Origin: Candidatus Latescibacterota bacterium
Lineage (GTDB): Bacteria > Latescibacterota > UBA2968
Assembly (NCBI GenBank): GCA_965116885.1
Contig: OZ220741.1
Span: 4,640,001-4,704,000 of the forward strand
DNA: 64,000 bases
Direction of reading: 5' to 3'
Notes under the pieces: generated by a model
The model's database searches: none
What the model was told of the DNA's origin: nothing
What the model saw: only the letters and a program-made list of their open reading frames with translations
Shown: piece by piece, positions 3,257-30,319 of the stretch
How the letters are laid out: every line of letters begins with the position of its first letter
Numbering within the stretch: the first letter of the stretch is position 1
Program-made: the position numbers and the translations under genes

Positions 3257-3290
3257 TGGATTTACCCCGTTTTGGTGGCGTATTTAGGGC
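3257..3290 (-). mobile_element. Orphan IS3-family right end
   Basis: TGGATTTACCCCGTTTTGGTGGCGTATTTAGGGC closely matches the reverse complement of the IS end at 21590-21623. Confidence 0.7.
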
Positions 3291-3425
3291 ATTGATATAC
3301 CTAATTCTGTCACCAATTTGCCCTCAAGCGAAATGTTAAGGGCAAAAACCCCTCGTTGCGATTCTCCCAATTTTCGGGCACAAAAACCTTGACAGGTATT
3401 TGTCCACCCCCGAAAGGAGATCGCT

Positions 3426-3830
3426 ATGAATCAAACAGCAGAAGCCGTCACCCCGCGACAACGCGCTGTGCTCCAAAAGCTCATGTTGTCCCCAAACTTC
3501 ACCGCAGCAGAAGCCCACCGTACCGCCATTTGGCTCAACTCACCCCGCGCCACAAAAGACAAGGCGACCGAGATTATCGACAAGGCCCAGGAGCGCATCA
3601 AAAACCGAGACGATAAGGCCGCCTATCACGCCCAAAAAGACGAGTATCCCCCCCGGCGATACTCGAATGAGAACCCGCCGCCCAATGGAAAATCGGATAC
3701 TGAAGACCCGCCAACGCCTGCACCAACTCGCAAAGCTGAACAGGAGCAGAAGATTTACCAAATCAATGGCGTGGACGACACCGACAAGACCAAAGCCACC
3801 GAAGCCGTGTCAAAGGACATTTTCGGCTAA
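3426..3830 (+). CDS. Hypothetical protein with DUF3072-like N-terminal helical motif
   Basis: TPRQRAVLQKL...SPRATKDKATEIIDKA; AAGGAG RBS. Confidence 0.55.
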   Translation: MNQTAEAVTPRQRAVLQKLMLSPNFTAAEAHRTAIWLNSPRATKDKATEIIDKAQERIKNRDDKAAYHAQKDEYPPRRYSNENPPPNGKSDTEDPPTPAPTRKAEQEQKIYQINGVDDTDKTKATEAVSKDIFG

Positions 3831-3839
3831 GGAGACGCC

Positions 3840-4538
3840 ATGTATAAAATCAACGGAGTCCACGAAGTCGAACAACCCATCTACAAAATACAACAGCGCG
3901 GCGCTGAGTCCTTATCCGATGAAGAACTTTTGGCACTGGTCTTGCGAATCTCGCAAAGAGATGATTGCAATGTGCTGGCTAAGTTGCGCGGCTTTTTGAA
4001 ACGGAACCCTCTCCAATCACTCGCTGACTTTCAGCTTGAGACACCACCAGGGCAAATTGTCAAGCGCGAGCTTAAAGGAAACGATTTGACAAAGGCTCAG
4101 TTGTTGACGCTAAAAGCCGTTATCGAGTTTGCCCGCAGAGTGTTGGACAGAGGTATGGGCACAGAACCATCAATCACTTCGCCTGCTGATGTACTTCCCG
4201 AACTGCGCGACATCAAAGACAAAAAGCGAGAATATTTTGTCACTGTTTTCCTCAATGCTCGGAATCAGATCATCAATACGGAAATCGTCAGCGTTGGCAG
4301 TCTATCTGCCTCTCTTGTGCATCCAAGAGAAGTTTTTGCCCCAGCCGTAGCGTCAAGCGCAGCGAGCGTGATATTGGGACACAACCACCCCAGCGGCGAT
4401 GTGACACCTTCAAGGGAAGATATTGAACTCACCCGCCGCATTGTGCAAGCTGGCGAGATTATGGGGATCGAGGTATTGGATCACCTGATTGTCGGCTCAG
4501 AGCGATTTCTTTCAATGAAAGAGGCGAATGTATTTTGA
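3840..4538 (+). CDS. radC: RadC family JAB-domain protein
   Basis: LSDEELLALVL N-terminus; VHPREVF and HNHPSGDVTPSREDIELT...LDHLIVG JAB motifs. Confidence 0.92.
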   Translation: MYKINGVHEVEQPIYKIQQRGAESLSDEELLALVLRISQRDDCNVLAKLRGFLKRNPLQSLADFQLETPPGQIVKRELKGNDLTKAQLLTLKAVIEFARRVLDRGMGTEPSITSPADVLPELRDIKDKKREYFVTVFLNARNQIINTEIVSVGSLSASLVHPREVFAPAVASSAASVILGHNHPSGDVTPSREDIELTRRIVQAGEIMGIEVLDHLIVGSERFLSMKEANVF

Positions 4539-4587
4539 CCACCTGGACGGCGGCTTCAAGGGCCGCCCACACAAAAGGATCGCACCA

Positions 4588-4767
4588 ATGCCAGAAAAGA
4601 CCACACCACACACACCGGAAAAGTTCGTTGTCCGTCTCAAGTTCTTCGGGCTGGTCACAGTCAAGCCAGAGGAATTTGTCGAGAAGCTCGAAAAGCTATG
4701 CCAAGAGTTCACGGACTCGCCAGAGGAATACAGCTTTTCCTGGGACACAGATTTCGCCGCTGAATGA
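4588..4767 (+). CDS. Small acidic hypothetical protein
   Basis: 59 aa ORF with AAGGA RBS within the operon. Confidence 0.45.
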   Translation: MPEKTTPHTPEKFVVRLKFFGLVTVKPEEFVEKLEKLCQEFTDSPEEYSFSWDTDFAAE

Positions 4768-4779
4768 AAGGAATCCCCC

Positions 4780-5109: not shown

Positions 5110-5160
5110 CCCACCTGGGCGGCTCCAGGGTCGCCCAATTCACACAGGAGACACAGCCCT

Positions 5161-5349: not shown

Positions 5350-5420
5350 CCTCACGAAACTGACCACCAGGGCAGCCCGCGCGGTCGCCACAACCCCCAC
5401 CTTTTGAAAGGATTCAACCA

Positions 5421-6164: not shown

Positions 6165-6171
6165 AACCCTA

Positions 6172-6994: not shown

Positions 6995-7003
6995 CTTTTT
7001 CAG

Positions 7004-10916: not shown

Positions 10917-11037
10917 TGGAGTTACCCCGCTTTCGTGGATAATTTAGGAGATTCATCCTAATCATTCTGCGCCATCAGTTTTTCATAGGTGATGGGTGAT
11001 TTATTTATGCTATTATCCACCAAAATGGGTAATGAAA
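10917..11037 (-). mobile_element. IS3-derived mini-element, copy 1 (one end degenerate)
   Basis: TGGAGTTACCCCGCTTTCGTGGATAAT end; minus strand encodes KSPITYEKLMAQND*, an IS3 OrfB-type tail. Confidence 0.8.
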
Positions 11038-11407
11038 ATAATCTTGTTCATTACGAACAAATGCACGTCCTCCTAAAATTTCAAGGTCGCCCGGATACAA
11101 ATCGGCATTCGCCATTTTGGCGCGCTTCCCTTAGTTGACCTGACAATTTCCTTGTAGGTCTGTGCTTCACAAAAACACAGACCTAGCAAAGATGAAAAGA
11201 CACAGAATTATCTTTTTTCTTTTTTATTGGGTTGTTGAGTTACACGCACAAACACTTCCGTATTGGACTGAACAGCTTTGTCAACCGAGTTTCGGCCCTT
11301 AAATTCTGCACTTATGCGTCAATATGTTGTGTTACCAAGGTCACTTTATCCCCCAAGATATTGTAGGGGACGCGGTGCAGTTTCAATACACGGGACGGTT
11401 GTGAGGT

Positions 11408-11608
11408 TTACTGTTTGTTCGACCTCAATTTTTTGTTCGGTACTGTCTTTCGCTTAATGCCTAATTTCTTCATTTTGCTATACAGCGTAGATGGGGGTAA
11501 CTCTAATAGCTCTGCGGCCCCACCCGGACCTCCTACCCGCCAGTCTGTAATTTCCAACACGCTAACAATGTAATTACGGATTGCATCTTCAAACGATACG
11601 ATTTTCAT
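11408..11608 (-). CDS. Stand-alone Fis-type HTH (bEBP C-terminal-like) protein
   Basis: WRVGGPGGAAELLELPPSTLYSKMKKLGI; AAGGAAG RBS. Confidence 0.7.
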   Translation of the reverse strand: MKIVSFEDAIRNYIVSVLEITDWRVGGPGGAAELLELPPSTLYSKMKKLGIKRKTVPNKKLRSNKQ

Positions 11609-11632
11609 CTTTCTTCCTTTGGCAGCTTAATG

Positions 11633-11774
11633 TGGGAGCCTCTTATTTGATGCTGTTGCCGAATTCCGAATTCTGTTCATACAGAGCTTATATTCAGGCC
11701 ACAAACAGCCGTTTTTCCAACTACAGATCCTTCTTGACCAATTCGGCAACAGCATCCAAAACGGGTCAAGTCCA
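11633..11774. mobile_element. IS3-type mini-element with 17-bp sub-terminal IR
   Basis: gatgctgttgccgaatt (11649-11665) / aattcggcaacagcatc (11740-11756); outer end reads TGGACTTGACCCGTTTTGG on the minus strand. Confidence 0.65.
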
Positions 11775-12139
11775 TCTTTCAGAGGTATTTTCCATTTGTG
11801 ATCGCCTCGTACTTTAATATTGAATATATTGGACCATTTGCTATAAACATTCCAATAAAACAATAGGTCGGTATTAGTAGTAAAAACAAAAGGACGGATA
11901 TAATCCGTCCTTAATTTCTACCTGGGTCCGTGTTAGGAAGAATTACGAGTTAGAACAGATAACCGAGCGTTAGAACTGAAAAGGATGTGAACTCTGACTA
12001 GATAGATGGAGGCCTCACTCTCATGTTTGGGAAGTATGAGAAAGTCCTAAACACTCCACCCAAAACGAGGGAACTTCACTATTCGTACACCCGCACAACT
12101 GCCAGCCCCTTTGGATTCTACAGCTACAGTTCTACCCGA

Positions 12140-12853
12140 TTAGAACTTTATTTCAATACCCATTCCAATTTTACCCTTATGGGGGATAAGGCTAAATCTG
12201 TTGGAAGGTTTATGATGTTTTCCAGGGCTTTGCGACTGGTCTCGCCTTTCTATTTTTACATGCAGAGATCTACGCCCTTCAACTGCGCCGGTTACTCTGA
12301 GGTATTGATGGAGTGTTGTGCTCTCACTTGTTTTCCATATCAGAGCAGTAAGAACTGCTGACACACCTCCCCAAACTGACATGATAGTATCCCCATTATA
12401 GGGCGGGTATAACGCAAGACAGTCGAGACCCATTTCATAGCTTGGCGAGTCTAAACACTCTTGAAACCTTTGATTCTGTAAATCCTCTTGCTCCCTTACA
12501 TACGCATCAGCCACAAAATATGAACCAACACAGGCCGCTACAGTTATGACGACTGGTGTCATATCTCGAGATTTCGTTTGATACGATGCTTCCTTAAAGG
12601 TGAACCCTTCACCCTCATCAAACACAGATACTACATTGCCAGTATGCCTGTTTTTTACAATCATCCGCGGTCCATCAATGGTGATGATGCCGTCATACCA
12701 GATGGTCAACCTGCCCTGGCTGTCCACCGATCTGTATTTCACAGGCGCCCCAGAATCAATGCCGGGCAATGAACCAGCAAAACAAGGACTAAGAAAAAAC
12801 AGCAAGCCAAATATGGCAACCGCAGGTCGAAAAGATGATTTAAAAATTTGCAT
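12140..12853 (-). CDS. Secreted/membrane hypothetical protein
   Basis: AAGGAG RBS, signal peptide, hydrophobic segments, C-terminal Phe. Confidence 0.65.
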   Translation of the reverse strand: MQIFKSSFRPAVAIFGLLFFLSPCFAGSLPGIDSGAPVKYRSVDSQGRLTIWYDGIITIDGPRMIVKNRHTGNVVSVFDEGEGFTFKEASYQTKSRDMTPVVITVAACVGSYFVADAYVREQEDLQNQRFQECLDSPSYEMGLDCLALYPPYNGDTIMSVWGGVSAVLTALIWKTSESTTLHQYLRVTGAVEGRRSLHVKIERRDQSQSPGKHHKPSNRFSLIPHKGKIGMGIEIKF

Positions 12854-12869
12854 GGTAAACTCCTTCAGT

Positions 12870-12896
12870 AATAGCATCTAAAATGGGGTAACTCCA
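12870..12896 (-). mobile_element. Orphan IS3-type end
   Basis: TGGAGTTACCCCATTTTAGATGC, 5 nt after the stop codon at 12902. Confidence 0.7.
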
Positions 12897-12901
12897 TAAC
12901 A

Positions 12902-15900
12902 TCAGTTATCTACCCGCTTTAGATTCAGGATGACAGGCTCAGCTGGCCTGGCATTAGGGTGCGTTATGATGGTACAGTTAAGTGGAATCAGCCCTTCAGA
13001 TCCTATCGCAAGTTTGGGAGACGGCAGGGTGTACGCATCTGCCTGCGTGACATCAACGCGGTAGCCTATATCGGCGAGCGATTGGATCGTGATCGCGCTG
13101 ATTACAACAACTCTACCGTGTGTGGGTGTCATGAGTTCGTTGCCGAATACGGACTGCCGCCAGTGAGAATCCTGGCCCCCTACAAATGTGTTCTCCACCG
13201 GCACTTTCGCACCCGTGTAGCCCGATCCACCAGCACTATTGAAAGCCGCGATCGCTTTTGGTCCTGAGAAATACGTGTCGGGCAGGGGAACAACGCGCCC
13301 GCTATATAAGTTCGTCGGGTTCTGTAGCCGATTGTAAGCATCTTCTCTCCACGGTCTAACGCCGAATCCCAGCGCGTGCCCCATCTCGTGCAGAATAACG
13401 TCTCCCAATCTTGTAATATCCAGGTCGTCCTGGTCAAGCTCTATTCGGGATGCGAACGGCAGGACGGACGGAACGCGAAAGAGTACCGTGCTCGCACGGC
13501 CGAGCACTTTTCCATCTCCGTCAATTGGAACGGCTGACACATAGATCACCAGATCATCGACAACTTCGGGGGCAGTGGTTCCCGGGTAACGCTGGTTCAA
13601 TTCATATTGATCGTTACTGGACAACTTATGGTTGGGGATGTCGTGCGTGATGATCTGCTCCCAACGCTCGGCAGCGGTTTCAAATGCCGTCTTCACCGTC
13701 TCAGAAATGTTGCCGACAAAGACAAAATCGATATCGAAGGAAGACGTTCCATCCTTCGTCGCTTCGGCAGTTGCGGAGCGAAGGCCCGTTAAGCTGCCGC
13801 TACAATCCGTACCGAGATATCCGTAATCAGCCTCATAAGTGGTGCCCGGCTCGAAGAAGTTGGAGGCTGAGAAAGTTGACGATGTCGTAATATCCTGGGC
13901 AGAATCCTCCGCATTCGTGAAGGTGCTGCACGCCTCGGCCCACTGGCCGATATTCGTCTTGTGCCGGATTCTGAACTGGTAAGCCCGGTCTTCATTGGCC
14001 GCGAAGTTATCGGTGAATCCGAGCGTGAAGCTATCGCCGCTGATGCTCAGGGTGGGAGCCGATAAGGTCGGCGTCTGGATAGTCGCGTTGAAGTTTGTTG
14101 AGGCGGTCGCACCCCAGGGATCCGTCGCGGTTACGGTAATGGTCGCAGTGCCAGCGGATAGTGGATCAATCAGGACATATCTACCGATCATCTCTACGGT
14201 CGCGGCGGTACTGTTATTTGACGATGCCGTATATCGCAGGCGGGAATCGTCGGGATCGCTGAACACATGATCTGTTGTAAACAACCACTGGCGCTGGGTA
14301 GCACCACCCGCTGGAATCGTCACATCTTCGATGCTGCTTAAGACAGTCGGTGAGGCGTTGGAAATCGTCACCTCCGCCGAACGAGACCACGCGCCCTCTC
14401 CTTCGTCGTTATTCGCCCGCACCTGCACCTCATGGCGGATGTTCCTCACCACGATTTTTGTGATCGTTGCACTCGTGCCGGGGCCCATATGCGACCAGGG
14501 CATAAAGCTACTGCTGCCCGCCCGATATTGTATGTCATAGTCATTGATGTCGGGACCGGTGTTGGTCGGCTCGGTCCAGCTCACGATCAGATTTTTTTTA
14601 TAGCCAAGAGCGTCACCCGCCTCAATTTCAACCTGCGGCGCAGACGGCGCCCTGGGCGGTTCGTTCACATCGGTCAAATGGATTGTCACATCAATGAAGG
14701 CATTGCCGCCACGACCGTCGTCTGCTTCCACAGTCACCACATAGCGGTCCAAATCCTCGTAATTGTATGTGACGCCCGATCGGGTGCGAAGTTGACCGTT
14801 GCTTGAGTTGATGGTGAATGAACCGGCATCAGATCCGCTGAGGCGATAGATCAGGCGGTCACGGTTGGGATCGGTGGCACTGACCGGATGCTGGATATTT
14901 CGATTGGATGCCGTGTTCTCAGCCACGCTGCGGGAGGTGCTCGCACCGTCGTCGAAGGTCGGATCCCGGTTAGGACCCGGTGGTGGCGGTGGTGGCGGTG
15001 GCGGCGGTGGTGGTTGTGGTGGCGGTGGTGGCGGTCTCGGACCACCGCCTCCCCCTCCACCCCCTCCTCCTCCCGACGGCACAGAGGTGCTCCACTCGCT
15101 CGACTCAGACCATTCACTCGTGCCTTCCTCGTTCGTCGCTCGAACCCGGATGTCGTACTCTGTATTTTGCGAGAGATCAGTCAAACGCATCGACTTTTTC
15201 GTGTCGTCATATACCACACTGGTAATCTCATATTCCGCATCAATGAACGCATCACTATCGGCTTGTCGGTATTGCACATCGTAGTCCGTGATTTCAGGTC
15301 CCGTGTTTACAGGCTCGGTCCAGATCACGGTCAGGCTCGTCGGAGCAATTGCCGAGACACTCGGTGGAGCAGGCTGCATAGGCGGTTCGTCGATGTCATT
15401 GATGGTAATACCTACAGCAAGACTCGCCTCACCACCTTCGCCATCACTGACATCGACAGTGATGGAATACGTATCCTTTTGCTCAAAGTTATATGTGCCT
15501 TTTGTCTGAATTTGTCCTGTGCTCTCGTCTATGGCAAAACTGTCTGCATCAGCACCACTGAGGCGATAGGTCAGCGTATGGCCTTCAGCGTCACTGGCTG
15601 TGATAGGATCACCAATGGCCTGTCCAGGTGCGGTATTCTCATCTATGGAGAGTGCCACAGGAGGCTCAGACGGGAAGGTGGGTGCGCGGTTGACCACTTT
15701 GCCGAAGCTATCGAAGAAGAGCAGAAAATCGGGTATCCCAATCTCGCCATCCACATTCAGATCGTATTTGGCCTCATAAGTATCTTGACCTCTTCGAGAA
15801 CCAAACACATCGACAAAGAGCAAGAAGTCGGGGATCTCAACTGTTCCATTCCTGTCAAAGTCCGGAGAAGGCGGTTTGGCAAGCTGCAAGGTAGCACTCA

Positions 15901-16411
15901 GATCCAGCGATACAGTCTCGGTCTGTCCCCCTCGCACGAGTCTTGCACGCACCAGCAGTATATCTGTACCCGAAAATGCCTCTGTTGTGAGAAAGTGAAT
16001 TGCGCCGATAAGACCGCTGCCTGGACTGTTAGCCGATAGGGTTATCCCGATATTTGCAACGTCCTTGCCTGTAAGTGCAGAGGTGCCAGACACGATATTG
16101 GATCTCTTAAATGCTTCGTAAGCAACCTGAGATGGATCAAATTCAAAGCGCAGGAAGAGATCGCTCGCATCCCCAATATCTGCACCGAAGATTTGAATGG
16201 CAGCTGTGCGATTGGGTAAGACATCGAGGGAGGCGATGGATTGATCGCCTTCGGAATTATCTAAATCGAGAGAGAGGGAAAAGCTGCTGGTCTGGGTGGA
16301 TAGCGACCGCGGGAATAGCAAGAATAAAAGGCTTAGCAGGCTGACAGTACTGAGTGCGAGAGGGAAAAGTTTAACAGCGGATTTAAGCATTTGTTTTAAA
16401 TTGAAAAACAT
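12902..16411 (-). CDS. Large secreted protein: cohesin-like + dockerin/EF-hand + cadherin/FN3 repeats + leishmanolysin (M8)-like Zn peptidase (start 16411 or 16417)
   Basis: DFDRNGTVEIPDFLLF and DLNVDGEIGIPDFLLF; cadherin IDENT...DAEG..LTY; FN3 WTEP..YDVQY; Gly/Pro linker; HEMGHALG, SHW, ELMT. Confidence 0.85.
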   Translation of the reverse strand: MFFNLKQMLKSAVKLFPLALSTVSLLSLLFLLFPRSLSTQTSSFSLSLDLDNSEGDQSIASLDVLPNRTAAIQIFGADIGDASDLFLRFEFDPSQVAYEAFKRSNIVSGTSALTGKDVANIGITLSANSPGSGLIGAIHFLTTEAFSGTDILLVRARLVRGGQTETVSLDLSATLQLAKPPSPDFDRNGTVEIPDFLLFVDVFGSRRGQDTYEAKYDLNVDGEIGIPDFLLFFDSFGKVVNRAPTFPSEPPVALSIDENTAPGQAIGDPITASDAEGHTLTYRLSGADADSFAIDESTGQIQTKGTYNFEQKDTYSITVDVSDGEGGEASLAVGITINDIDEPPMQPAPPSVSAIAPTSLTVIWTEPVNTGPEITDYDVQYRQADSDAFIDAEYEITSVVYDDTKKSMRLTDLSQNTEYDIRVRATNEEGTSEWSESSEWSTSVPSGGGGGGGGGGGPRPPPPPPQPPPPPPPPPPPPGPNRDPTFDDGASTSRSVAENTASNRNIQHPVSATDPNRDRLIYRLSGSDAGSFTINSSNGQLRTRSGVTYNYEDLDRYVVTVEADDGRGGNAFIDVTIHLTDVNEPPRAPSAPQVEIEAGDALGYKKNLIVSWTEPTNTGPDINDYDIQYRAGSSSFMPWSHMGPGTSATITKIVVRNIRHEVQVRANNDEGEGAWSRSAEVTISNASPTVLSSIEDVTIPAGGATQRQWLFTTDHVFSDPDDSRLRYTASSNNSTAATVEMIGRYVLIDPLSAGTATITVTATDPWGATASTNFNATIQTPTLSAPTLSISGDSFTLGFTDNFAANEDRAYQFRIRHKTNIGQWAEACSTFTNAEDSAQDITTSSTFSASNFFEPGTTYEADYGYLGTDCSGSLTGLRSATAEATKDGTSSFDIDFVFVGNISETVKTAFETAAERWEQIITHDIPNHKLSSNDQYELNQRYPGTTAPEVVDDLVIYVSAVPIDGDGKVLGRASTVLFRVPSVLPFASRIELDQDDLDITRLGDVILHEMGHALGFGVRPWREDAYNRLQNPTNLYSGRVVPLPDTYFSGPKAIAAFNSAGGSGYTGAKVPVENTFVGGQDSHWRQSVFGNELMTPTHGRVVVISAITIQSLADIGYRVDVTQADAYTLPSPKLAIGSEGLIPLNCTIITHPNARPAEPVILNLKRVDN

Positions 16412-16474
16412 ATACATACCCCGAGTTGTGACGTAAAAGATTGCAAAATGTCCATACAACTTGAGTTATGTATA

Positions 16475-16718
16475 TGCAAAAATCGTGCCAGTTTGTAATA
16501 AACGAGCTAATTCCTTGCGGATGAAGGAGTTGAAGCATATTCGGGATGATTCAGAGATTTTTGAAATGTCGCAGAATAATACACAAAAACCACAAGGAAT
16601 CGCATATACGTTGCGTTATATGTGATATAAATATTTATTTGTGAATAATTTATATGGAAAATAGAGGTGGGATATAGCGGGTGTGTTGCAACTTCGATAC
16701 ATGTCGCATTTTACAACA
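16475..16718 (-). promoter_or_regulatory. sigma54 promoter with upstream enhancer (copy A)
   Basis: TGGCACGATTTTTGCA at 16490-16475; palindromic UAS tgtcgcattttacaaca at 16702-16718. Confidence 0.85.
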
Positions 16719-16872
16719 CATCTGACAAATGCGCCCTCATCCGGGGGACCGGTTTAAGAGGTTACAGGCAGCAGAAGGCGGTGCATCGCAACTGGAGACA
16801 AAGACTGGCTTGTGGCTCGGATGGCAAAAGTACGGCATTCGACCAGATCTCAGTCCTGATCGTCTGTGCAGT

Positions 16873-18684
16873 TCAATCCCTGGCGATGGCGATGTCGTAT
16901 TTTTTTAACTTCCGGTACAGAGTCGCCCGATTAATACCCAACGCCTGGGCGGCCTGAGCAATGTTGTTGCCCGTGGCCTCGATCGCGTGGATCAGGGCCT
17001 GACGCTCGATCTCGGTCAATGGCAGGATCGCCTGTGGTGCCGAGAGGTCTCTTACCAAAGCAACGGCTGGCGATAGCTGAGACGGCAGATTATCTGCTTG
17101 CAGCACCCCGGTCGTCTCTAACAGCACAGCGCGCGCTATGGCGTTTTCCAGTTCTCGCACATTGCCCGGCCAATCGTACTGTAGCAACAGGCGCAGGACA
17201 AGGGTGGAAATGTCGCTTATGGATTTGCCGGCCTGGGCAGTGTATTTCTCGAGAAAATGCCTGGCCAATAGGGAAATATCTTCATGCCGATCTCTCAGTG
17301 GTGGAATCGTGATGGGGAAGGCAGCGATGCGATAGAACAGATCCTGGCGGAACGTGCCCTCTTTTACTGCACGCTCCAGGTCCTTGTTGGTCGCCGTTAT
17401 CACGCGGATGTCGATAGAAATGGGAGCTGTTCCTCCAATCCGCTGGATTACCCGCTCCTGCAAGACGCGCAACAGCTTGCCTTGCATGACATACGGCATG
17501 TCGCCGATCTCGTCGATAAAGAGCGTGCCGCCATTGGCGCGCTCGAAGGCCCCGATTCTCTGCTTCGTGGCTCCTGTGAAAGCCCCTCGTTCATGTCCGA
17601 ACAACTCGCTTTCGATGAGTGTTTCGGGAATGGCGGCGCAATCGAGGGCCACGAACGGCTCATCCTTGCGTGGGCTGTTGGCGTGCAATAAGTTGGCGAC
17701 CAATTCCTTGCCGGTGCCGCTCTCGCCGCAAATGAGTACCGTGATATCGCTTTCGGCGGCCTGCTGCATCAGCTCGTACACCTGCTGCATTACGGAGCTG
17801 GTGCCGATCAGGTCGGGAAATAAACTGATCGTCTCCAACTCGTTGCGCAAGTGATGCAACTCGGCTTTCATCTGCTCGGTCTCAATGGATAACTTTTTTT
17901 CTGTGGTGATGTCGCGGAAGACGAGCACGGCACCTTTCAAAATACCTTCCCTTCCTCGCAAGGGTCTGCCGCTGAGGCTGACATAAATGCCTTCGGGCTT
18001 CTGTGCGTTGCGTATGAATAGCTCAATATCGTCAGTGGCCTTGCCCTTCAGAGCAAGCATCAGTGGACTCTCCTCCACGGTGAAGAACGTCTTTCTATCG
18101 GATTTAAAAATACCGTATTTTTCGATCCATTTGTAGATATCCTGATCCAGCGGAGAGTCGTCGTCCATCCACTGCGCGCTCAAATTATTAAAAAGTGGCA
18201 CGCCATTTTCATCAAAGGCGACCACACCCTCCCTCATGCTGTTGAATACGGTTTTCATGAGTCGGGTGAGATCTTTGTATTTGTTGATTATTCGCTTCAA
18301 CCTGCTTTTCGTCTCGTGCATCTCAAGGGCAGTCAGGATATTCAGGTTGAGTTGTCGCTCCTCAAACGGCCTCAGCACATAGCCGAAGGGGTTGGCTGCC
18401 TGCGCTTGTTGCAACAGGTCTCCCTCAGCTTCGTCAGTCAGATATAACACGGGAACGTCGAACCGGTTGCCGATCTGCTCGGCTACTTCCGGACCGGTGA
18501 TCTCCCCTTCGAGACAGAGATTAACCAGGGCCAGGTCTGGATGCGTGTCCGCGGCTTTTTCAATGGCTTGATGCCCGCACGAAACTGTGGCACACACCAT
18601 GTATCCCAGGTTTTTCAGGCATTCTTCAAGGTGTGTGGCACCGGAGGCATTGTCTTCGACAATCATTATCTTTGTGTCGGTCAT
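16873..18684 (-). CDS. sigma54-dependent activator (atypical REC-PAS-AAA+-Fis HTH)
   Basis: [34 protein letters not shown]-terminal HTH. Confidence 0.93.
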
Positions 18685-18783
18685 ACTGTTCGCGTCCTGT
18701 TAGGGTGATTTTTTTGTACTTTTTACACACTTTTACAGTTTGATACCCAAATAGGTCCAGATTTAGGATCAACCCATCATTTT

Positions 18784-19030
18784 TGTTGTAAAATGCGACA
18801 TGTGTTGAAATTGCAACACATTCTCTACTTCCTATCTCCGGTTTTTCCATAAATCACTTATAAACATATGTTTGTTACATATCCTAAATACAGTGAATAT
18901 GCATTTTCATGTGGTTTTCAGCGTCGCATTCTGCAACATTCCAAAAATCTCTGAATCATTCTGACTATACCCTAACTCCTTCATCTACAAGGAATTAGCT
19001 CGTTTGTTACAAACTGGCACGGTTTTTGCC
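18784..19030 (+). promoter_or_regulatory. sigma54 promoter with upstream enhancer (copy B, inverted homolog of copy A)
   Basis: UAS tgttgtaaaatgcgaca at 18784-18800; TGGCACGGTTTTTGC at 19015-19029. Confidence 0.85.
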
Positions 19031-19278
19031 TTTGTACAGACGAGAGAATATGGGAATCATATACTAAAGTGTCAAGATCAGAACAATATACTTGTCATTG
19101 AGAATTTATAATCGCATAAGCGGAAAAAACTGCGGGTGGACCCGGTGGTGATAATAACAGGGACCAAATACCGGGTATAGTCCATACCAGGTAAAAGTAG
19201 ATATAGTCACACACATCCGACTTATGCGAAACGATTTGTCATTTTGCATAATACTCATATAAAAAAGAAAGGTGTCGT

Positions 19279-21417
19279 ATGAAGCGTTTTTGTATTGTGC
19301 TTGTGGTCATTACAAGCTGTCTATGGACCTGGCTACCTCTGGCGCATACATCACAAGTAAGACCTGTGCCGGACTTTGATCAAAACGGCACTGTGGATAT
19401 TTCAGACTTTTTGCTCTTTGTCGGCAAATTTGGTTCAAAACAAGGCGATGAGACGTATGAAGACCGATTCGATCTGGATGGCAATGGCACGGTTGACATT
19501 TCAGACTTTCTGATCTTCGTCAAGGATTTTGGCAAAGCATCTCCTGAAAGTGGTGATGAAAACGACGTGAATATACCAGATGCCAACCTGCGTGCTGTAA
19601 TAGCAGACAGCCTTGGCAAAGGGCGAGATGAGGCCATCACACGGGCAGAGATGGCGAGCCTGACGCACCTTGAGGCACAGGGGGCGAACATCAGCGATTT
19701 GACCGGGTTGCAGTTTGCTACCAATCTGACATACCTGTGGCTTACTGGCAACCAACTAACAGACCTCTCTGCGTTGTGTGACTTGACCGACCTGACAGAT
19801 CTGGTTCTTTTTTCAAACACAATAACAGATATATCCGCGCTATCTAACCTGACAAATTTGGGACACCTGAATCTTGCTGGCAATGGCCTCTCCGATATAT
19901 CCACGCTGTCTAACTTAATAAACTTGGAATGGCTGTTCCTTGCCGACAACACAATAACAGATATCTCTGCCCTATCTGATCTGATCAATTTGACAGGGCT
20001 GGATATTAGCAATGCCACCATTACAGATATCTCTGCCCTGGCTAACTTGATCAACCTGACAAACCTGGGACTTAACGATAACTGTGTATCAGACCTCTCT
20101 GCACTGTCTAACTTGACAAATCTGACATATCTGAATCTCAGCGGCAATAGAATCACAGACCTTTCGCCATTAGTGACAAATACGGGATTGGGTAGTGGCG
20201 ACGAGGTCGATGTGCGGAAAAATCCATTAAGTGCCGAATCGCTCAACAGACACATACTTACCATTCAGAGCACAGGCGTTAAGATACAATTCGACGACCA
20301 GTTCGTATTGGGATGCGTCCCCATACTTCCAAAGAATCTTTCCGTAGATACAGGAAGTTCTCACACTCTACAGGCCAATTCTCTGTATGTTGATCATGAG
20401 ATAATAAGACGCGGAGGTAGTGCTGGCGTGGTGTATGCCGATTTTAACAGAGACGGTCATATTGACATTTTTTATGCACCAGGCGGAGGTTCAGCAGAGC
20501 CTACTCCCGCAGAATTGTATCTTAATGATGGCGCAGGATGTTTCTCCCTCGACACCAATTTCTTTAATGGAAATCCACCGGGTTTGGTGCATCCGAGAAA
20601 GGCTTTGCCGGGAGATTTTAACGGGGACGGGAAAATGGACATCTTCGCGTTGGGTCACGGGTACGACGCCCCACCCTTTCCGGGCGAAGCACCTTATGTC
20701 ATTCTTTCGTCAGGTGACGGCTTCGTATTGGGCAAAGGGTTAGACACACTTATTGGATATCATCACGGCGGCGCATCAGCCGATATTGACAAGGATGGAG
20801 ATATAGATGTATTTGTCACTAATTCACCCTTCGGCACGCCATTCTTTCTTATTAACGACGGCACGGGATCATTTACAATAGATATAAACCGGACTGAGGG
20901 CCTTGTGCATAGACAGCTATATACCGCTGAATTGGTTGATGTCGATACCGACGGGTTTCTCGACTTGTTAGTTGCGGGTCACGAATACGATCCCATGCCC
21001 GGAGACGAAATGCCGACGCAAATCCTGTGGGGTGATAGCACAGGTATATTTAGTACAGCTAAGGCGACAGTTCTTCCGGATATTATTGGTCACGGCACTG
21101 TTGTTGACATTGACGTAAGCGATACAGATGAGGACGGAGATAAAGATATTGTCGTCAACCGAACCTCCGATTCCGCTGTGGGTAACGACTGGTATAAGGG
21201 ATATTATTTGCAATTAGTTGAACAAAAAGCCCCGCGCAGGTTCGAGGACAAAACTGCGCAGTCAATTTTCAAAAACGAAGATGCCAATGCGGATTGGATC
21301 ACCTGGATCCGAATGTGTGATTGCAATGGCGATGGACATGTAGATATCGTGGTTGACGATGCCGGCAGAAACTTGATCTGGGAGAATGACGGAACCGGCA
21401 CATTTAGGCCACGCTGA
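19279..21417 (+). CDS. Secreted dockerin/EF-hand + internalin-like LRR + FG-GAP/VCBS repeat protein
   Basis: DFDQNGTVDISDFLLF and DLDGNGTVDISDFLIF; IPDANLR cap with 22-aa LRRs; DFNRDGHIDI-type repeats. Confidence 0.88.
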   Translation: MKRFCIVLVVITSCLWTWLPLAHTSQVRPVPDFDQNGTVDISDFLLFVGKFGSKQGDETYEDRFDLDGNGTVDISDFLIFVKDFGKASPESGDENDVNIPDANLRAVIADSLGKGRDEAITRAEMASLTHLEAQGANISDLTGLQFATNLTYLWLTGNQLTDLSALCDLTDLTDLVLFSNTITDISALSNLTNLGHLNLAGNGLSDISTLSNLINLEWLFLADNTITDISALSDLINLTGLDISNATITDISALANLINLTNLGLNDNCVSDLSALSNLTNLTYLNLSGNRITDLSPLVTNTGLGSGDEVDVRKNPLSAESLNRHILTIQSTGVKIQFDDQFVLGCVPILPKNLSVDTGSSHTLQANSLYVDHEIIRRGGSAGVVYADFNRDGHIDIFYAPGGGSAEPTPAELYLNDGAGCFSLDTNFFNGNPPGLVHPRKALPGDFNGDGKMDIFALGHGYDAPPFPGEAPYVILSSGDGFVLGKGLDTLIGYHHGGASADIDKDGDIDVFVTNSPFGTPFFLINDGTGSFTIDINRTEGLVHRQLYTAELVDVDTDGFLDLLVAGHEYDPMPGDEMPTQILWGDSTGIFSTAKATVLPDIIGHGTVVDIDVSDTDEDGDKDIVVNRTSDSAVGNDWYKGYYLQLVEQKAPRRFEDKTAQSIFKNEDANADWITWIRMCDCNGDGHVDIVVDDAGRNLIWENDGTGTFRPR

Positions 21418-21486
21418 GCGCAGAAGCCAACCAGCGGAGTATGCGGATTCGTGTCACTGATGTAAAAAAACGTTCTATGAGACAAT

Positions 21487-21623
21487 TATATTGAAGGGTG
21501 GTATAATCCGCATCGCAGGCATTCTTCCATCGCCTACCCTGCGCCGATAGCCTATGAAAAACTGCATCAATCACAGGCCTGATACACAAGCCCTAAATAC
21601 GCCACCAAAACAGGGCAACTTCA
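21487..21623 (+). mobile_element. IS3-family remnant: transposase C-terminal tail + right IR
   Basis: YIEGWYNPHRRHSSIAYPAPIAYEKLHQSQA*, then ccaccaaaacagggcaacttca. Confidence 0.85.
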
Positions 21624-22950: not shown

Positions 22951-23709
22951 ATGTTCAAAAGAATTGTTGGATGCCTATTGCTTGTTATGGCAACAGCCGA
23001 TATTGCAGAAGCTGTTGACGGCGATCTTGACTTAGATGGGGATGTAGATTTTCAAGACTTTTTAATTTTAGTACAAAATTTCGGAAAGGAAGGCCCTCCT
23101 TCTCCAGCACGTACTGATACCATTTATGTGACGAAAATAGATACCGTATTTACTACCATCAGAGACACTATATATGTCTCGAAAGTGGACACGTTTTATA
23201 TCGAGACAGGTGCGCCTGTCATTCCCTATGACCGTGACCTGTACAAGCATTGGATTGATGCTGATGGGGACTGTCAGGACACAAGACAGGAAGTTTTAAT
23301 ATCTGAAAGTCTGCAACCAGTCGTTCTCGACGACCGGGGATGCCGGGTCGTATCGGGAGAATGGTTGGATTTGTACACGGGACAGACTTTTACTGATCCG
23401 AGTAGATTGGACATAGACCACTTTATTCCGCTGTCTGAAGCCCATCGAAGTGGCGCAGATACCTGGACGCCGGAACAAAGGCAAGCATTCGCCAATGATT
23501 TGACGAATGAACATTCTTTAATTGCTGTGTCTGCCTCAGCAAACCGATCTAAAGGAGATCGAGACCCCGCAAACTGGTTGCCACCGAATGAGGCTTTTCA
23601 GTGCGAGTATATAAAACGGTGGGTGGCCGTGAAGGAGTATTTCAACTTAAGGATGGATGCAACAGAAAGAAATTTTTTGCAAAATCATCCATGTTTGCAG
23701 AATGATTAA
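22951..23709 (+). CDS. Secreted dockerin-like + DUF1524-type HNH endonuclease
   Basis: Signal peptide; DLDLDGDVDFQDFL; LDIDHFIPL...NRSKGD..WLP. Confidence 0.85.
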   Translation: MFKRIVGCLLLVMATADIAEAVDGDLDLDGDVDFQDFLILVQNFGKEGPPSPARTDTIYVTKIDTVFTTIRDTIYVSKVDTFYIETGAPVIPYDRDLYKHWIDADGDCQDTRQEVLISESLQPVVLDDRGCRVVSGEWLDLYTGQTFTDPSRLDIDHFIPLSEAHRSGADTWTPEQRQAFANDLTNEHSLIAVSASANRSKGDRDPANWLPPNEAFQCEYIKRWVAVKEYFNLRMDATERNFLQNHPCLQND

Positions 23710-24031: not shown

Positions 24032-24150
24032 TGGAGTTACCCCGCTTTCGTGGATAATGTAGGAGGTTCATCCTAATCATTCTGCGCCATCAGTTTCTCA
24101 TAGGTGATGGGTAATTGTGAAATGTTATACATCAAATCGGATCAAGTCCA
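24032..24150 (-). mobile_element. IS3-derived mini-element, copy 2 (119 bp, TG...CA)
   Basis: Homologous to 10917 and 28607; ends TGGAGTTACCCCG and cggatcaagtcca. Confidence 0.85.
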
Positions 24151-24161: not shown

Positions 24162-24818
24162 CTATTCATTATCAGATAAGCAAGGGTGAGTTTGTAAAAA
24201 ACGTATCTCTGCGGTATCCATATCTAAATCCCAATAATTCTTTATTGCAATCCAACGGTTGATATATTCACAATGGAATGACTTATTAGGCGGTAGCCAA
24301 TTTGCAATATCTTTATCACGCTTAGAACGATTGGCAGACGCAGATACAGCGATTAAAGCATGCTTATTTACCAAATCATTTGAAAATAAACGTCTCTTAG
24401 CCGAAGTCCAAAGATTAGCACCGCTTCGGTGGGCTTCTGCTAACGGTATAAAATGGTCTATATCTAATTTCCCAGGGTCTGTAAAAACTTGACCAGTATA
24501 TAAATCTAACCACTTGCCAGATAGAACTTTACAACCCTTACTGTCGAGAACAACTGGTTCTAAACTTTCAGCTATTAAAACCTCTTGCCTTGTATTCTGG
24601 CAATCCCCATCAGCATCAATCCAGTAACCGTAAAGACTTCTGCTGTAAGTATTCGATTTTGTTGATTTATCAGAACTTTTACTTTTAGAACCACTATGAT
24701 AATGATACTCTCCAGTCTTACGATTCGTATGACCGCCATTACTGTCAGTCCTCCCACTATGACCGTAAGCCAACGTAGAACCAAAGAGTATTGTAGCCAA
24801 TACAAATAACTTATACAT
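24162..24818 (-). CDS. Secreted YHYH-motif + DUF1524-type HNH endonuclease
   Basis: HSGRTDSNGGH...YHYH; LDIDHFIPL...NRSKRD; paralog of 22951-23709. Confidence 0.85.
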   Translation of the reverse strand: MYKLFVLATILFGSTLAYGHSGRTDSNGGHTNRKTGEYHYHSGSKSKSSDKSTKSNTYSRSLYGYWIDADGDCQNTRQEVLIAESLEPVVLDSKGCKVLSGKWLDLYTGQVFTDPGKLDIDHFIPLAEAHRSGANLWTSAKRRLFSNDLVNKHALIAVSASANRSKRDKDIANWLPPNKSFHCEYINRWIAIKNYWDLDMDTAEIRFLQTHPCLSDNE

Positions 24819-25347
24819 AAACCAAATTCTCCAATTAAACGAGTTAAGATGAAACTTCATAGTAATATATATCATAGAGATTGCCGTCGAATCTAAACTT
24901 ACAAATTAGATCGCAAAGACGGCGAATTTCAAACGGCACATCGTAGATGGTTATGGTATTTACGTCATTGCGCTCCCACTTCAATCCCTCCATAGATTTC
25001 ATATGTTCCTCAACCTCACTTATTGCCATCCCCGTCTTTAATTTGAAGGGATATTTTTCTGGTGGTAAAATCATAGGTGTTTCCTCCAGTGTTCAGGCGT
25101 TAAAAAAAGTTGCTCAATTTTGTATATAATACCAATATTTTCCATAATTTATGGAAATAAAAATTAATTTTATTGTTAAATCAGCTCGAATTTTGAACGG
25201 TTAAAACGGGTCAGAGCTAATACGCTCTAACTCCCGAAGTGCCCTCTGATTCCATCCAGGTACCAATGGCTAAGCCTTTTAAATGGACTTATACGGGCAA
25301 ACCTCTGAAAGTATAAACCGATGGAATACTTCTGCCAAACAGCACTA

Positions 25348-26284
25348 GGTAGTGTCTGAAAAGTCGTAAAGTATGTATTTTAGTTGCAGCATACGCCGAA
25401 AAGAAAGGAGTATGATATGCAACGGAGATACGAACTGAGCGACGAGGAATGGCATCTGATCCAAGACTTATTCCCACCGCCGCAGAAGATGGGTCGTCCC
25501 CGTCGGGATGATCGTACATTATTCAACGGGGTCTTCTGGATATTGTGTTCAGGTGCAGCTTGGCGCGATCTGCCAGAACGCTATGGTCCTTGGCAGACAG
25601 CCTTTGACCGATTCTGCAAATGGAAGCAGGATGGCACCTTTGATCGCATTGTAGAAAAGCTGCATCTCAAATTGGATGAAGATGGCCTTTTAGATTATGC
25701 GACCTGGATGATGGATGCAACCCATATTCGAGCCACACAAGCCGCGGCAGGAGCGAAAAAAAAAGGGTAAAGAGGGTGAAGCAGAACCCCCAGATCACGC
25801 TTTAGGACGCTCTCGTGGCGGTTTGACCACGAAAATCCATCTTCTTTGCGATGCAGTCGGGCATCCTTTAGCAGTGGACCTGCTCCCTGGCAACCAGTCA
25901 GAATCCACACAGGCTGAAAGGCTGTTATCAAAGGTACGCATACCCACCAAACAAGGGCGTCCAAGAAACCGACCTCAGTATCTGGTGGCTGATAAGTCTT
26001 ATGATGTCTCACGCATCAGAGGCTATCTACGCAAACGGGGTATCAAGGCTGCTATCCCAAACAAGGCGATTCCTAAAGGCAGAAAACGGCGTAAGAGAGG
26101 ACCAAGGCCAACGTGTGATAAAAGATTATATGCCAAACGCAATATCGTCGAGCGTCTCTTTGGCTGGCTCAAACACTGCCGACGGATTGTGACCCGGTTT
26201 GAAAAAAAGGCGACTCATTTTCTCACTATGGTCAAGCTGGCATGTATCAGACAACTCTTCAAAGCTTACTTTTCAGACACTACC
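25348..26284 (+). mobile_element. IS5-family (IS427-like) insertion sequence, apparently intact
   Basis: Perfect 17-bp IRs GGTAGTGTCTGAAAAGT / ACTTTTCAGACACTACC; TA on both flanks (CTAG site). Confidence 0.93.
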
Positions 26285-26287
26285 TAG
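25417..26287 (+). CDS. IS5-family transposase, two ORFs joined by probable -1 frameshift at the A-run ~25756-25765
   Basis: YELSDEEW...WRDLPERYGPW...DATHIRA; GRSRGGLTTKIH...ADKSYD...RNIVERLF. Confidence 0.9.
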
Positions 26288-27783: not shown

Positions 27784-27888
27784 TGGACTTGACCCGTTTT
27801 AGTGGACAACTTATCTCTTTCAGAGAAAGGAGTCCAAAATGAGAAGAAAAAGATCATATCCAACAGCATCTAAAGCGGGGTAACTCCA
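27784..27888 (+). mobile_element. Internally deleted IS3-family element (105 bp)
   Basis: Left IR TGGACTTGACCCGTTTTAGTGGACA, AAGGAG + MRRKRSY (OrfA-like start), right end aaagcggggtaactcca. Confidence 0.8.
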
Positions 27889-28434
27889 TTAGTAACGCAT
27901 TCTCGCCATACTAATGTATTCTTTCTCCACCACCTCTATTTGTGGTATGCCCTGGTATTCTGTTATTTTTCCTCTCACACAAATCTGTTTTCCTCTATAT
28001 GTCTGTTCTGGTTTGTCAAATTTCTGACGATACCGACCCCATATCACAACAGTAAAAACTTGATCTGGGTACGGTTTACCAAGGTTCAGATAGGTAGGAG
28101 ATCCTCTGCTGTTCTCAGCGTAATGGGTACTCTCAACTTTACCGCAGACAACTCCTATTTGGCCGATATGATTAACAGCATCTTCAGCTATAATTTTACT
28201 ATCCTCATAAAAATCATCGCCCTGTACATCATAACCCATTCTATCGGCCCGCTTCAACCCCAAGCTGTCTTCCGCGTCATTCGATATCGCTTTAGTTCCG
28301 CCATCGACATAAGCTGATGCCTTCTTCGTTTGAGGGGCATCCAGTCTTTCTACCTCCGTTTGTCCACACGACAAAAACACTGCGCCAAAACTAAAGATCA
28401 ATGAAACGCACAACAAAAATCGGAGAATATACAC
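27889..28434 (-). CDS. OB-fold-like lipoprotein
   Basis: Lipobox FLSC; VCGKV...TYLNLGKPYPDQVFTVVIW...VRGKITEYQGIPQI. Confidence 0.75.
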   Translation of the reverse strand: MYILRFLLCVSLIFSFGAVFLSCGQTEVERLDAPQTKKASAYVDGGTKAISNDAEDSLGLKRADRMGYDVQGDDFYEDSKIIAEDAVNHIGQIGVVCGKVESTHYAENSRGSPTYLNLGKPYPDQVFTVVIWGRYRQKFDKPEQTYRGKQICVRGKITEYQGIPQIEVVEKEYISMARMRY

Positions 28435-28564
28435 ACATCCCTCCCTGAAAAGTTACAGTGATACTCTATAACAAATGATAGGTAGGTCACAAGCAAAAAG
28501 CCGAATTAGCCTACACTTCCATTTCACGATCCCGCCAGCGAGAATATAGTAGGTTGCCATTTCT

Positions 28565-28778
28565 CTGTCCACCAAAACGAGTCGAGTCTATGGAGCAAGT
28601 CCAGCTTGGAGTTGCCCCGCTTTCGTGGATAATGTAGAAGGTTCACGCCAATCATCCAGTGCCATCAATTTTTCATAGTTGATCAGTGATTTATGCTATT
28701 GTCCACCAAATCGGGACAAGTCCATTTAGAAAAGTTGGTATAATTTTTGCCCTGCTCTGTTAAAACGGGAATTACCCA
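28565..28778. mobile_element. Cluster of IS3-type ends including mini-element copy 3 (28607-28724)
   Basis: Outer ends at 28590 (-), 28607 (+), 28724 (-) and 28778 (-). Confidence 0.8.
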
Positions 28779-28928
28779 CTTTAACCCCCTAACTTTGCAT
28801 AAAGTAAAACCCCACAATCTAAGTGATTGTGGGGCTTCTTTGTTAAAGGACTGCCTTTAACAACCCCCCTTTGTCAACATTTTTTAGAAGTTTCCCGTTG
28901 ACAAACTCTTTTTTTACCGGTCATACTT

Positions 28929-30038
28929 TTATTGAAAATCTCCTCTTTCTTCAGCAATTTCGATGGGTTCAAAATATGCATATAGAGCCGCACGCCGTCC
29001 GTGAGCAAACGATATTTCTCTTAACATATTATCTTGAACTTTGTGTATTATATCTGCGGCAGTTGTTCTTGAAATTTTTAGCCCTTTAGCGATATCAGAT
29101 ATTGAAAAAACAGGTTGGGCGAATATAAAATCGAGAGTCTGGATGGCATACCGAGATGAGGTCTTTTTGCTGATCCACGATTTGCGTTTTTCGTACAATT
29201 CCATGATTGACCGTGCTTTGCGTGTATTCTCTCGCGCTTGGGCTGTAAGAGCTTTAAGGAAAAAGGCGCACCACCCAGTCCAATCGTCGTCTTGTGACAC
29301 AGCCAACAGATGATCATAGTAAACTTCTCTTTTTGCCTCAAGATATTCGCTAATATAAAAATCTGGCGAATTGAGAATTTTTCTCTCAAGAAGAAAGAGA
29401 GGTACTAACATGCGGCCTATGCGACCATTTCCGTCCAAAAATGGATGCAACGCTTCAAATTCTGCGTGTGCTATGGCAAGCTGTACAAGCATGTCCCATC
29501 TGCCATTACTATTAAGAAACTTTTCCCATTTAGTCATGCCATCTTCCAATTTGTCGGGGGTCATAGGAATAAATTTAGCTGTCTCTTTTGTGCAACCGGG
29601 CGCACCTATAAAATTAGGTATTCTTTTGTAGTTTCCTGGGTCTTTATTTGTCCCGCGAACACCTTCCATTAAAATAGCATGTGCTTCTTTAAGCAATCGG
29701 CCACATAAAGGCAACTCGTCCATTCGATTAACGGTGTGCAAAACTGCATTGCGATAGTTTAAGACTTCTTTTATTTCACTGACCTTCTCGCCAACACGGT
29801 TTCCTTCTGCTTCGTATTTTAAAACCTCGCCAAGCGTCACTTCAGTGCCTTCAATTCGATTGGTCAACACCGCTTCTTGGACCGTAAGCGGCACAAGCAA
29901 CGTATGTGGGTTAGGCATAACATCAAGAAGCCCCTTAAACTCACCTAAAGCTGAATGGGCAGGGCCAATCAGTAATTGCAGTCGTTCCCAGTCAAGATTC
30001 TTGGGTGGAAATTTCCCATAGTGGTATTCTATTGGCAT
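28929..30038 (-). CDS. Fic family protein
   Basis: HPFLDGNGRIGR; TNRIEG inhibitory-type motif; C-terminal HTH. Confidence 0.92.
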   Translation of the reverse strand: MPIEYHYGKFPPKNLDWERLQLLIGPAHSALGEFKGLLDVMPNPHTLLVPLTVQEAVLTNRIEGTEVTLGEVLKYEAEGNRVGEKVSEIKEVLNYRNAVLHTVNRMDELPLCGRLLKEAHAILMEGVRGTNKDPGNYKRIPNFIGAPGCTKETAKFIPMTPDKLEDGMTKWEKFLNSNGRWDMLVQLAIAHAEFEALHPFLDGNGRIGRMLVPLFLLERKILNSPDFYISEYLEAKREVYYDHLLAVSQDDDWTGWCAFFLKALTAQARENTRKARSIMELYEKRKSWISKKTSSRYAIQTLDFIFAQPVFSISDIAKGLKISRTTAADIIHKVQDNMLREISFAHGRRAALYAYFEPIEIAEERGDFQ

Positions 30039-30250
30039 TTCTGACCCTCCTTATTTATAGCAGTGATTATACGAGGAAAAATATGTGTAATTTGATACAT
30101 TGTCAACTCCCAAAAAGCAAAAAAACACTTCCCAAATAGGCAGTAAAATCGCTTGGTTTGAGAGGGTTACGAAGTTATCTTAATGGAAATCGTAGCCCTT
30201 ATTTTTATGTGTAATGAGGGATAAAAAAGTAGAGCTTGTGTTCTACCCAA

Positions 30251-30319
30251 ACACAAGCCCTAAATACTCAATCAAAATGGGGTAACTCCAGTTTTATACA
30301 CCAAAATGAGTCAAGTCTG
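30251..30319. mobile_element. Two stacked IS3-type ends
   Basis: acacaagccctaaatac...ggggtaactcca (matches 21584-21623), then tacaccaaaatgagtcaagtctg. Confidence 0.75.

Follow-up and report, generated by a model that had tools for sequence, protein, structure and literature searches.

Decayed IS3-family ends and miniature elements in a variable genomic island of a Latescibacterota bacterium

A 64,000-nt stretch of the genome of a Candidatus Latescibacterota bacterium (bases 4,640,001–4,704,000 of a 5.56-Mb single-contig genome with 51% G+C; hereafter the window, whose coordinates are marked w where needed) contains a genomic island in which terminal fragments of IS3-family insertion sequences (ISs) are interspersed with cargo genes. 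An original prediction, made from the sequence alone, proposed that these ends serve as reusable junctions at which cargo genes are trimmed and stitched together, with an integron-like outcome. Our analysis indicates that the pattern very probably reflects a permissive and variable island in which ISs inserted, nested in one another, recombined, and decayed, with no dedicated cassette machinery. IS remnants lie between gene modules and at some synteny breakpoints because IS copies are both insertion scars and recombination substrates. Public sequencing runs that contain the window DNA or parts of it are mostly labeled as sponge metagenomes.

Both motifs by which the ends are recognized occur in the window more often than expected. 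With up to two mismatches, TGGAGTTACCCC gave 9 matches against 3.42 ± 1.66 expected, and TGGACTTGNCCCG gave 14 against 4.78 ± 2.32; the observed count was reached in 0 of 100 shuffles in each case. An nhmmer profile was built from 33 regex-picked seed ends. Because window ends were among the seeds, this profile is partly circular. Each claimed end was also read inward. Altogether, 17 IS3-type termini were accepted between w3257 and w30319 (table 1). All ends listed in the original prediction were recovered as termini in this way except that at 28778, which is doubtful (5 mismatches in 18 positions and no nhmmer match). Two termini go beyond that list, namely the minus-oriented and degenerate 11038, which pairs with 10917, and a tip of 13 nt spanning 28591–28603. 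Degenerate tips were observed at 11633 (plus), 28590 (minus), and 30319 (minus, 29 nt). A further match at 11494–11505 was rejected as a terminus, as it lies inside a small HTH_8 gene and is probably due to chance.

The ends are clustered, as had been predicted. Genome-wide, the profile had 59 matches at E ≤ 10, 13 of which fall within w3257–30290 (27 kb, 0.5% of the genome); none was found in w30291–64000, in agreement with the earlier statement that no convincing copy was found in 31–64 kb. A second cluster of nine nhmmer matches is located in an island at 3,848–3,856 kb beside tRNA-Pro. The assignment to the IS3 family was also borne out: the window ends are IS3-family terminal inverted repeats (IRs) from at least three lineages of ISs or miniature inverted-repeat transposable elements (MITEs), in mixed orientation and with varied decay, and they map onto two parent elements (designated IS-A and IS-B) and related MITEs. 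They had been described as orphans, but 10 of the 17 pair into five miniature elements of 105–142 bp, leaving seven solo ends.

IS-A, an IS3-family element 1256 bp long, is present elsewhere in the genome as three intact copies, two of which (copies 2 and 3) differ at only 2 of 1256 bases, implying that IS-A was recently active. The element has TG...CA tips (starting with TGGAC and ending with GTAACTCCA), and its left and right inverted repeats (IRL and IRR) have the same base at 22 of the first 28 positions. The orfA and orfB genes overlap, with orfB in the −1 frame (at locus L019, orfA spans 556–867 and the orfB frame is open over 798–1715). No classic A6G slippery motif was seen by eye in orfA/orfB, and a frameshift is predicted from the reading frames. 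The transposase matches NCBIfam NF033516 (IS3) with 343.6 bits (cut-off 160) and contains the Pfam domains HTH_Tnp_1, HTH_21, rve, rve_3, and rve_2. One of the three copies is flanked by a target duplication, GTAC, and the other two have none. Within the window, tblastn with OrfA and OrfB detected only the last 32 amino acids of OrfB, encoded at w21484–21579 (94% over 32 aa), all other matches having E > 0.02. Thus, the earlier observation that no intact IS3 transposase is present holds for the window but not for the genome, where an autonomous element with similar tips is available in trans in three intact copies.

IS-B (1253 bp) has the same build as IS-A, with TG...CA tips and terminal repeats; it is multicopy in sister species, and this genome has no whole copy. 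Fourteen full copies were recovered from 20 loci fetched from relatives, of which five have a 3-bp target duplication and nine have none. Three of the five copies with duplications lie within open reading frames (ORFs), one is located 55 nt past a stop codon, and one 30 nt before a start codon. In 6 of the 14 full copies (L026–L045), the ORF that flanks the right end and points outward can be extended back to a start codon located 49 nt within the IS. This may be an artefact of calling the longest ORF, or the element may be biased in its orientation upstream of genes. The IRR-tip pattern was detected in 14 of 18 genomes of the same genus versus 1 of 12 genomes of another family, with no occurrence of a reversed control pattern, and 50 of 60 IRR tips fetched from relatives do not belong to full-length copies. 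IS-A and IS-B possess every IS3-family feature that was tested. They appear to be unnamed IS3 lineages confined to one genus of an uncultured phylum and are probably undescribed members of the family; the literature on mobile elements of Latescibacteria and on IS3 MITEs or solo ends yielded nothing specific to this case.

The window mini-elements have no coding capacity, and their arms align to IS-A and IS-B ends. MITE-C, present in three copies, consists of about 86 nt of an IS-B-like right end (nt 1–86 are 79–85% identical to IS-B right ends) and about 33 nt of a left end. Copy 1 is 95% identical to w24032–24116 and 83% identical to w28606–28710. Full-length MITE-C matches (78–87%) were found in four sister genomes (G017, G015, G002, and G014), and near-complete matches in three more (G007, G005, and G012). 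Since the same structure recurs in several sister species, MITE-C is a true MITE of low copy number. MITE-B also occurs in several copies of the same structure: 127 nt of it are 92% identical to genome positions 4218251–4218377, and four more loci of the same genome contain it (five in all).

The 105-bp element at 27784–27888 is different, with no further copies of its structure. Its left part comprises the IRL, the 5′ untranslated region, and the first orfA codons of IS-B and is 95–98% identical to multicopy IS-B left ends in relatives; nt 78–105 were matched separately, and the full 105 nt were found in no relative. A simple internal deletion of IS-B was considered and ruled out: because the right arm is of MITE-B type, the element is a chimera. 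The two parts overlap by 9 nt of microhomology between IS-B and the MITE-B arm, which points to illegitimate recombination. Among the solo ends, the tip at 21623 has three changes, yet 137 bp of the IS right end follow it.

Some ends lie in or against others. The tips at 28603 and 28607 abut tip-to-tip across a 3-bp spacer, and the end at 30290 cuts the neighboring end at 30291. IR–IR junctions are found in circles or dimers of IS3-family elements, and IS911 is capable of targeted insertion beside a resident IR; the 28603/28607 abutment resembles either. Elsewhere in the genome, at 3526593–3526622, two IS3 tips stand back to back in a minimal element of 30 bp. In agreement with the original prediction, no clear target duplications are present in the window: none of the 49 possible pairs of plus and minus ends shares 4 or 5 bp, and two pairs share 3 bp versus approximately 0.8 expected by chance. 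Duplications are commonly missing (five of five window mini-elements, two of three IS-A copies, and 9 of 14 IS-B copies). This absence is not special to the island and is the usual trace of recombination between copies.

The same counts bear on the idea that the remnants form mosaic transposons mobilized in trans, in which pairs of solo ends or MITEs bracket cargo and are moved by the intact IS-A transposase, similar to the Tn3-family elements known as TIMEs. An apparently active IS-A with similar tips is indeed present, inverted pairs bracket single genes (28607...30290 around the SoFic gene, 1684 bp; 11633...12896 around a 245-aa gene, 1264 bp), and TIMEs provide a precedent (PMC4133298). 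However, no inverted pair has the shared 4- or 5-bp duplication expected of a composite or MITE-bounded transposon, the two 3-bp matches being attributable to chance, and the bracketing arms belong to different lineages, with tips and inner domains decayed to 70–90% identity to IS-A. Moreover, a search of 30 relatives did not reveal the 245-aa protein, no SoFic was detected between the corresponding flanks of the sister genome G009, and no cargo-plus-ends unit was seen at a second site. Mobilization of this kind is therefore highly unlikely.

Comparison with sister species revealed that the island is not conserved as a whole and that, consistent with the variable cargo implied by the original prediction, its content differs between species (G011, G009, and G003). 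In G011, w3.4–5.6 kb, w21.6–22.0 kb, and w30.4–30.8 kb are kept in order, and the intervening cargo is absent. Homology with both G009 and G011 starts exactly at the IS-A tip w21623, and homology with G003 ends at w11621, 12 nt from the MITE-B tip 11633; on the other hand, no IS end is located close to two of the four G011 breakpoints (w5612 and w22044). The two flanks of SoFic are conserved in G009, namely MITE-C with a terminator on one side and the promoter region with a decayed IS-A IRR on the other. Between these flanks, two small ORFs replace SoFic (w28841–30094 vs. L012 5761–7072; SoFic is exchanged from its −35 box to just before the terminator), but the limits of homology are about 115 and 195 nt away from the nearest IS tips. 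Homology breakpoints thus coincide with an IS tip exactly at w21623 and to within 12 nt at w11621, but not around SoFic. MITE-C copy 3 is 80.5% identical to its G009 ortholog and the flank is 84.1% identical, so the arms are no better conserved than the flank and no selection on them is visible.

These comparisons could also be explained by portable homology, that is, transposition-inert remnants might anchor homologous recombination that swaps the genes between them, giving a cassette-like outcome without a dedicated enzyme. The remnant-bearing flanks common to the window and G009, which enclose SoFic in one and two small ORFs in the other, fit this idea, as do the ordered landmarks of G011 with the cargo between them absent. 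In addition, most IS copies of the genus lack duplications, implying frequent recombination between copies. However, the G009 homology ends inside unique flank, and exchange need therefore not have used the IS parts; the G011 breakpoints at w5612 and w22044 lie away from IS ends, and the comparison is a single orthologous one. We consider this explanation unlikely. In metagenomes, runs X6 and X7, one of which may be the source sample, yielded contigs that reproduce the window sequence without change across the junctions at 12896, 24150, and 30290/30319; the joints in these contigs have short sides of 20–47 nt beside repeats and are silent on circles or excision. Runs X1 and X4 yielded fragments only.

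Several observations weigh against an origin by insertion, recombination, and decay. The first is the position of tips relative to stop codons. Distances of 0, 5, 11, and 11 nt, as originally reported, separate four tips from the stops of the ORFs 27889–28434, 12902–16459, 24162–24875, and 30331–30774. Accordingly, 4 of the 17 window tips are at most 11 nt past a stop, compared with 4.2% in a random-intergenic null (p = 0.005), a threshold chosen after the window data had been seen. When all 96 ends were pooled, window included, 10 were near a stop (p = 0.018), and a mild real tendency is therefore possible. Second, an X6/X7 contig joins the stop of gene 22951–23709 straight onto a MITE-C tip, although the shorter side of this joint is 24 nt and it may come from another organism or repeat. 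Third, the gene-tail-plus-IS-end junction of 30331–30774/30319, which involves a ParB-like gene, recurs at genome positions 1102429–1102566 (80%); this junction, common to two loci of the same genome, is either old or moved as a unit. Finally, cargo differs between conserved flanks that carry IS remnants, as in the SoFic region of G009.

The stop-codon enrichment seen in the window was not replicated by independent ends. Of 28 ends that this genome has outside the window, 2 are at most 13 nt past a stop, and in eight complete sister genomes this is the case for 4 of 50 non-full-length IRR tips, the same number (4 of 50) being equally close to a start. For this comparison, 60 of the 61 listed sister-genome tips were fetched (the last one, from G008, was omitted), and 13 tips were already covered as IS-B copies. 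Combined, 6 of 78 independent ends are near a stop (p = 0.18). A target preference of the ISs for stops was ruled out by the 14 full-length IS-B copies, only 1 of whose 28 ends is at most 14 nt past a stop. In a paralog of the ParB-like gene, a terminator hairpin occupies the place that the IS tip has in the window copy; thus, the native sequence downstream of the gene was lost at this junction at least. Overall, the stop pattern is weak, and its best explanation is that insertions and deletions persisted solely in intergenic sequence, together with chance.

A dedicated, integron-like mechanism of cassette assembly, in which IS ends would stitch cargo genes together, could in principle account for the clustering in the island, the four tips near stops, and the cargo that varies between species. 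Yet the ends are of mixed lineage, orientation, and decay, no target duplications accompany them, the stop effect is unreplicated and not shared by full-length IS-B, and one junction is explained by a 9-nt microhomology. In the whole genome, no integron integrase was found (IntI tyrosine recombinase, TIGR02249, best 88.2 bits vs. a cut-off of 265 bits). The prediction that the island operates without an integrase is correct for IntI, but a large serine recombinase is encoded about 9 kb left of the window. We regard dedicated assembly as extremely improbable.

An origin by ordinary IS activity would proceed as follows. IS3-family elements of several related lineages native to this genus would have inserted repeatedly into a variable, integrase-bounded island, in part within existing IS ends or next to them. 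The copies would then have shrunk as they recombined with one another, underwent illegitimate deletion, and decayed by point mutation, and the residue would be the solo ends (seven in number), the three MITE-C copies, a single MITE-B, and the chimeric stub. This order of events is inferred, and the junctions would likewise have formed by recombination between IS copies rather than by transposase action.

Table 1. IS3-type termini, remnants, and miniature elements of the window, and genes and other elements of the island
Feature	Position (window unless stated)	Strand	Evidence or remark
Accepted plus-oriented termini	3257, 10917, 11633, 24032, 27784, 28607	+	
Accepted minus-oriented termini	11038, 11774, 12896, 21623, 24150, 27888, 28590, 28603, 28724, 30290, 30319	-	
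Solo IRR, IS-A type, ~34 nt	3257..3290	+	nhmmer E=2.5e-4; 88-94% to IS-A right ends
MITE-C copy 1, ~122 bp	10917..11038		IRR arm intact, IRL arm tip lost; nhmmer E=8e-6 and 0.36
MITE-B, 142 bp	11633..11774		Inner motif GATGCTGTTGCCGAATT in both arms; left tip degenerate
Solo 28-nt IR, MITE-B type	12869..12896	-	nhmmer E=0.003; tip 5 nt past stop of 1185-aa gene
IS-A right-end fragment, 137 bp	21487..21623	-	90% to IS-A positions 1120-1256
MITE-C copy 2, 119 bp	24032..24150		IRL tip 11 nt past stop of GmrSD_C-like gene 24162-24875
Chimeric mini-element, 105 bp	27784..27888		IS-B left end nt 1-86 plus 28-nt MITE-B-type IR
Degenerate IRL (tip 28590) plus 13-nt tip fragment 28591-28603	28562..28603	-	Sequence reading; no nhmmer match at E<=10
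MITE-C copy 3, 118 bp	28607..28724		G009 ortholog 80.5% identical
Solo IRR, IS-A type, ~42 nt	30249..30290	-	86% to IS-A right end; nhmmer E=0.0046
Degenerate IRL fragment, MITE-C type, 29 nt	30291..30319	-	Tip 11 nt past stop of ParB-like gene 30331-30774; cut by 30290 end
Large serine recombinase, 541 aa	L018:9148-10773 = genome 4,629,148-4,630,773		Directly after core genes AspRS, PhoH, CorC
Cargo module: Fis-type HTH gene, orphan 245-aa gene, 1185-aa and 712-aa secreted repeat proteins, sigma-54 activator	11284..21430		Pfam
Orphan signal-peptide gene, 237/245 aa	12140-12877		Ribosome-binding site and start directly behind 28-nt solo IS end
Intact IS5-family element, 943 bp	25344..26287	+	NCBIfam IS5_3 160.5 and 126.8 bits; unrelated to IS3 ends
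SoFic-type Fic defense gene	28929..30038	-	PADLOC SoFic 342.8 bits, full length; Pfam Fic_N and Fic

The large serine recombinase is likely the island integrase and marks its left border. Two tRNA genes (tRNA-His and tRNA-Arg) at w35.9 kb were the only matches in an Rfam scan of w1–36500. Between the recombinase gene and these tRNA genes, backbone genes of an integrative element are represented by an HTH_36 protein, RadC, a Rad52-like protein, and the ParB-like helix-turn-helix protein, and defense-type genes by an FRG protein, a convergent pair of GmrSD_C-like genes, and a full-length SoFic, which is the cargo enclosed by MITE-C copy 3 and the 30290 end. Behind the 12896 tip, as originally noted, a GAAGGAG ribosome-binding site occupies nt 31–37 and the ATG of the orphan gene begins at nt 44. 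The IS5-family element has DUF4096 and DDE_Tnp_1 domains in two frames and is 95–97% identical to many copies in G009, G015, and G011.

The sigma-54/secreted-protein module has paralogs at three other loci of the genome and in G003:C55. A sigma-54 activator flanked by giant secreted proteins of the dockerin, cadherin, LRR, and FG-GAP types forms a recurrent module (genome 1099–1107 kb, 4392–4432 kb, and G003:C55), and IS3 ends are found near each copy. The 66-aa HTH_8 ORF was considered as a truncated sigma-54 activator; this was ruled out, as it is a complete small gene that is present in G003 too.

The convergent GmrSD_C-like nuclease genes (22951–23709 and 24162–24875) share 70% DNA identity and enclose MITE-C and a hairpin repeat; in G003:C80, a single gene of this pair is present. 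This terminator-like hairpin repeat, CCTCGAGTACA followed by an A-run and a GC-rich stem, is located at w8980–9140 and w23720–23770 and at genome positions 1102352, 1105062, 3321059, and 4215811, and at w9001–9140 it is tandemly duplicated (70 bp × 2, 97% identical). Its copies at w8980–9034 and w23720–23770 had been candidates for tRNA-derived att sites, which was ruled out by their identity as hairpin repeats. A segment of about 250 bp with a 76-aa ORF (w24836–25085) is 90–97% identical at several G003 loci and in G014; in other genomes and contigs, IS3 sequences adjoin its left boundary, and it may be another small mobile element.

The main value of these results is for annotation, as they define two MITE families together with IS-A and IS-B for a genus of Latescibacterota that is uncultured and associated with sponges. 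They also account for the mosaic make-up of the island, in which the eye-catching position of tips at stop codons fades when independent ends are considered. A bolder proposal is that IS3 remnants and MITEs are portable junctions, with SoFic-like modules exchanged between them, tip deletions trimmed by selection to gene ends, and IS-A acting in trans, so that together they would make up a loose, enzyme-sharing cassette system. If true, this would show how symbiont genomes can reshuffle defense and secretion genes in the absence of integrons. Such a system is not required by the present evidence, and we consider it distinctly unlikely.

Among known systems, integrons resemble the island in outcome only, that is, variable single-gene cargo in a row. 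They differ in that IntI was not found here, the repeats are IS ends in both orientations rather than attC sites, and cargo orientation is not uniform. Nearest to the cassette idea are the translocatable-unit or pseudo-compound arrays of IS26, which likewise contain IS-punctuated cargo without duplications. As described in PMC7986276, these arrays consist of whole, directly oriented IS6-family copies with a characterized conservative reaction, whereas the window contains decayed IS3-family ends that vary in type and orientation. TIMEs and MITE-bounded mosaic transposons, which according to PMC4133298 have been trapped while moving, with 5–6-bp duplications, share with the window the idea of transposase-less miniature elements that bracket and move unrelated genes; in the window, neither movement nor duplication was seen. 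In comparison with MITEs, the window copies lack target duplications and 27784–27888 is a unique chimera rather than a family member, but their size of 105–142 bp, noncoding nature, arms like those of autonomous ISs, and the recurrence of MITE-C with the same internal junction are typical. The ends themselves derive from the IS3 family, for which IS911, IS2, IS3, and IS150 are studied models. Although the window holds only remnants, the parent elements share with this family TG...CA tips, imperfect repeats of about 27–35 bp, a −1 overlap of orfA and orfB, an rve DDE domain, 3–4-bp duplications, and a length of about 1.25 kb.

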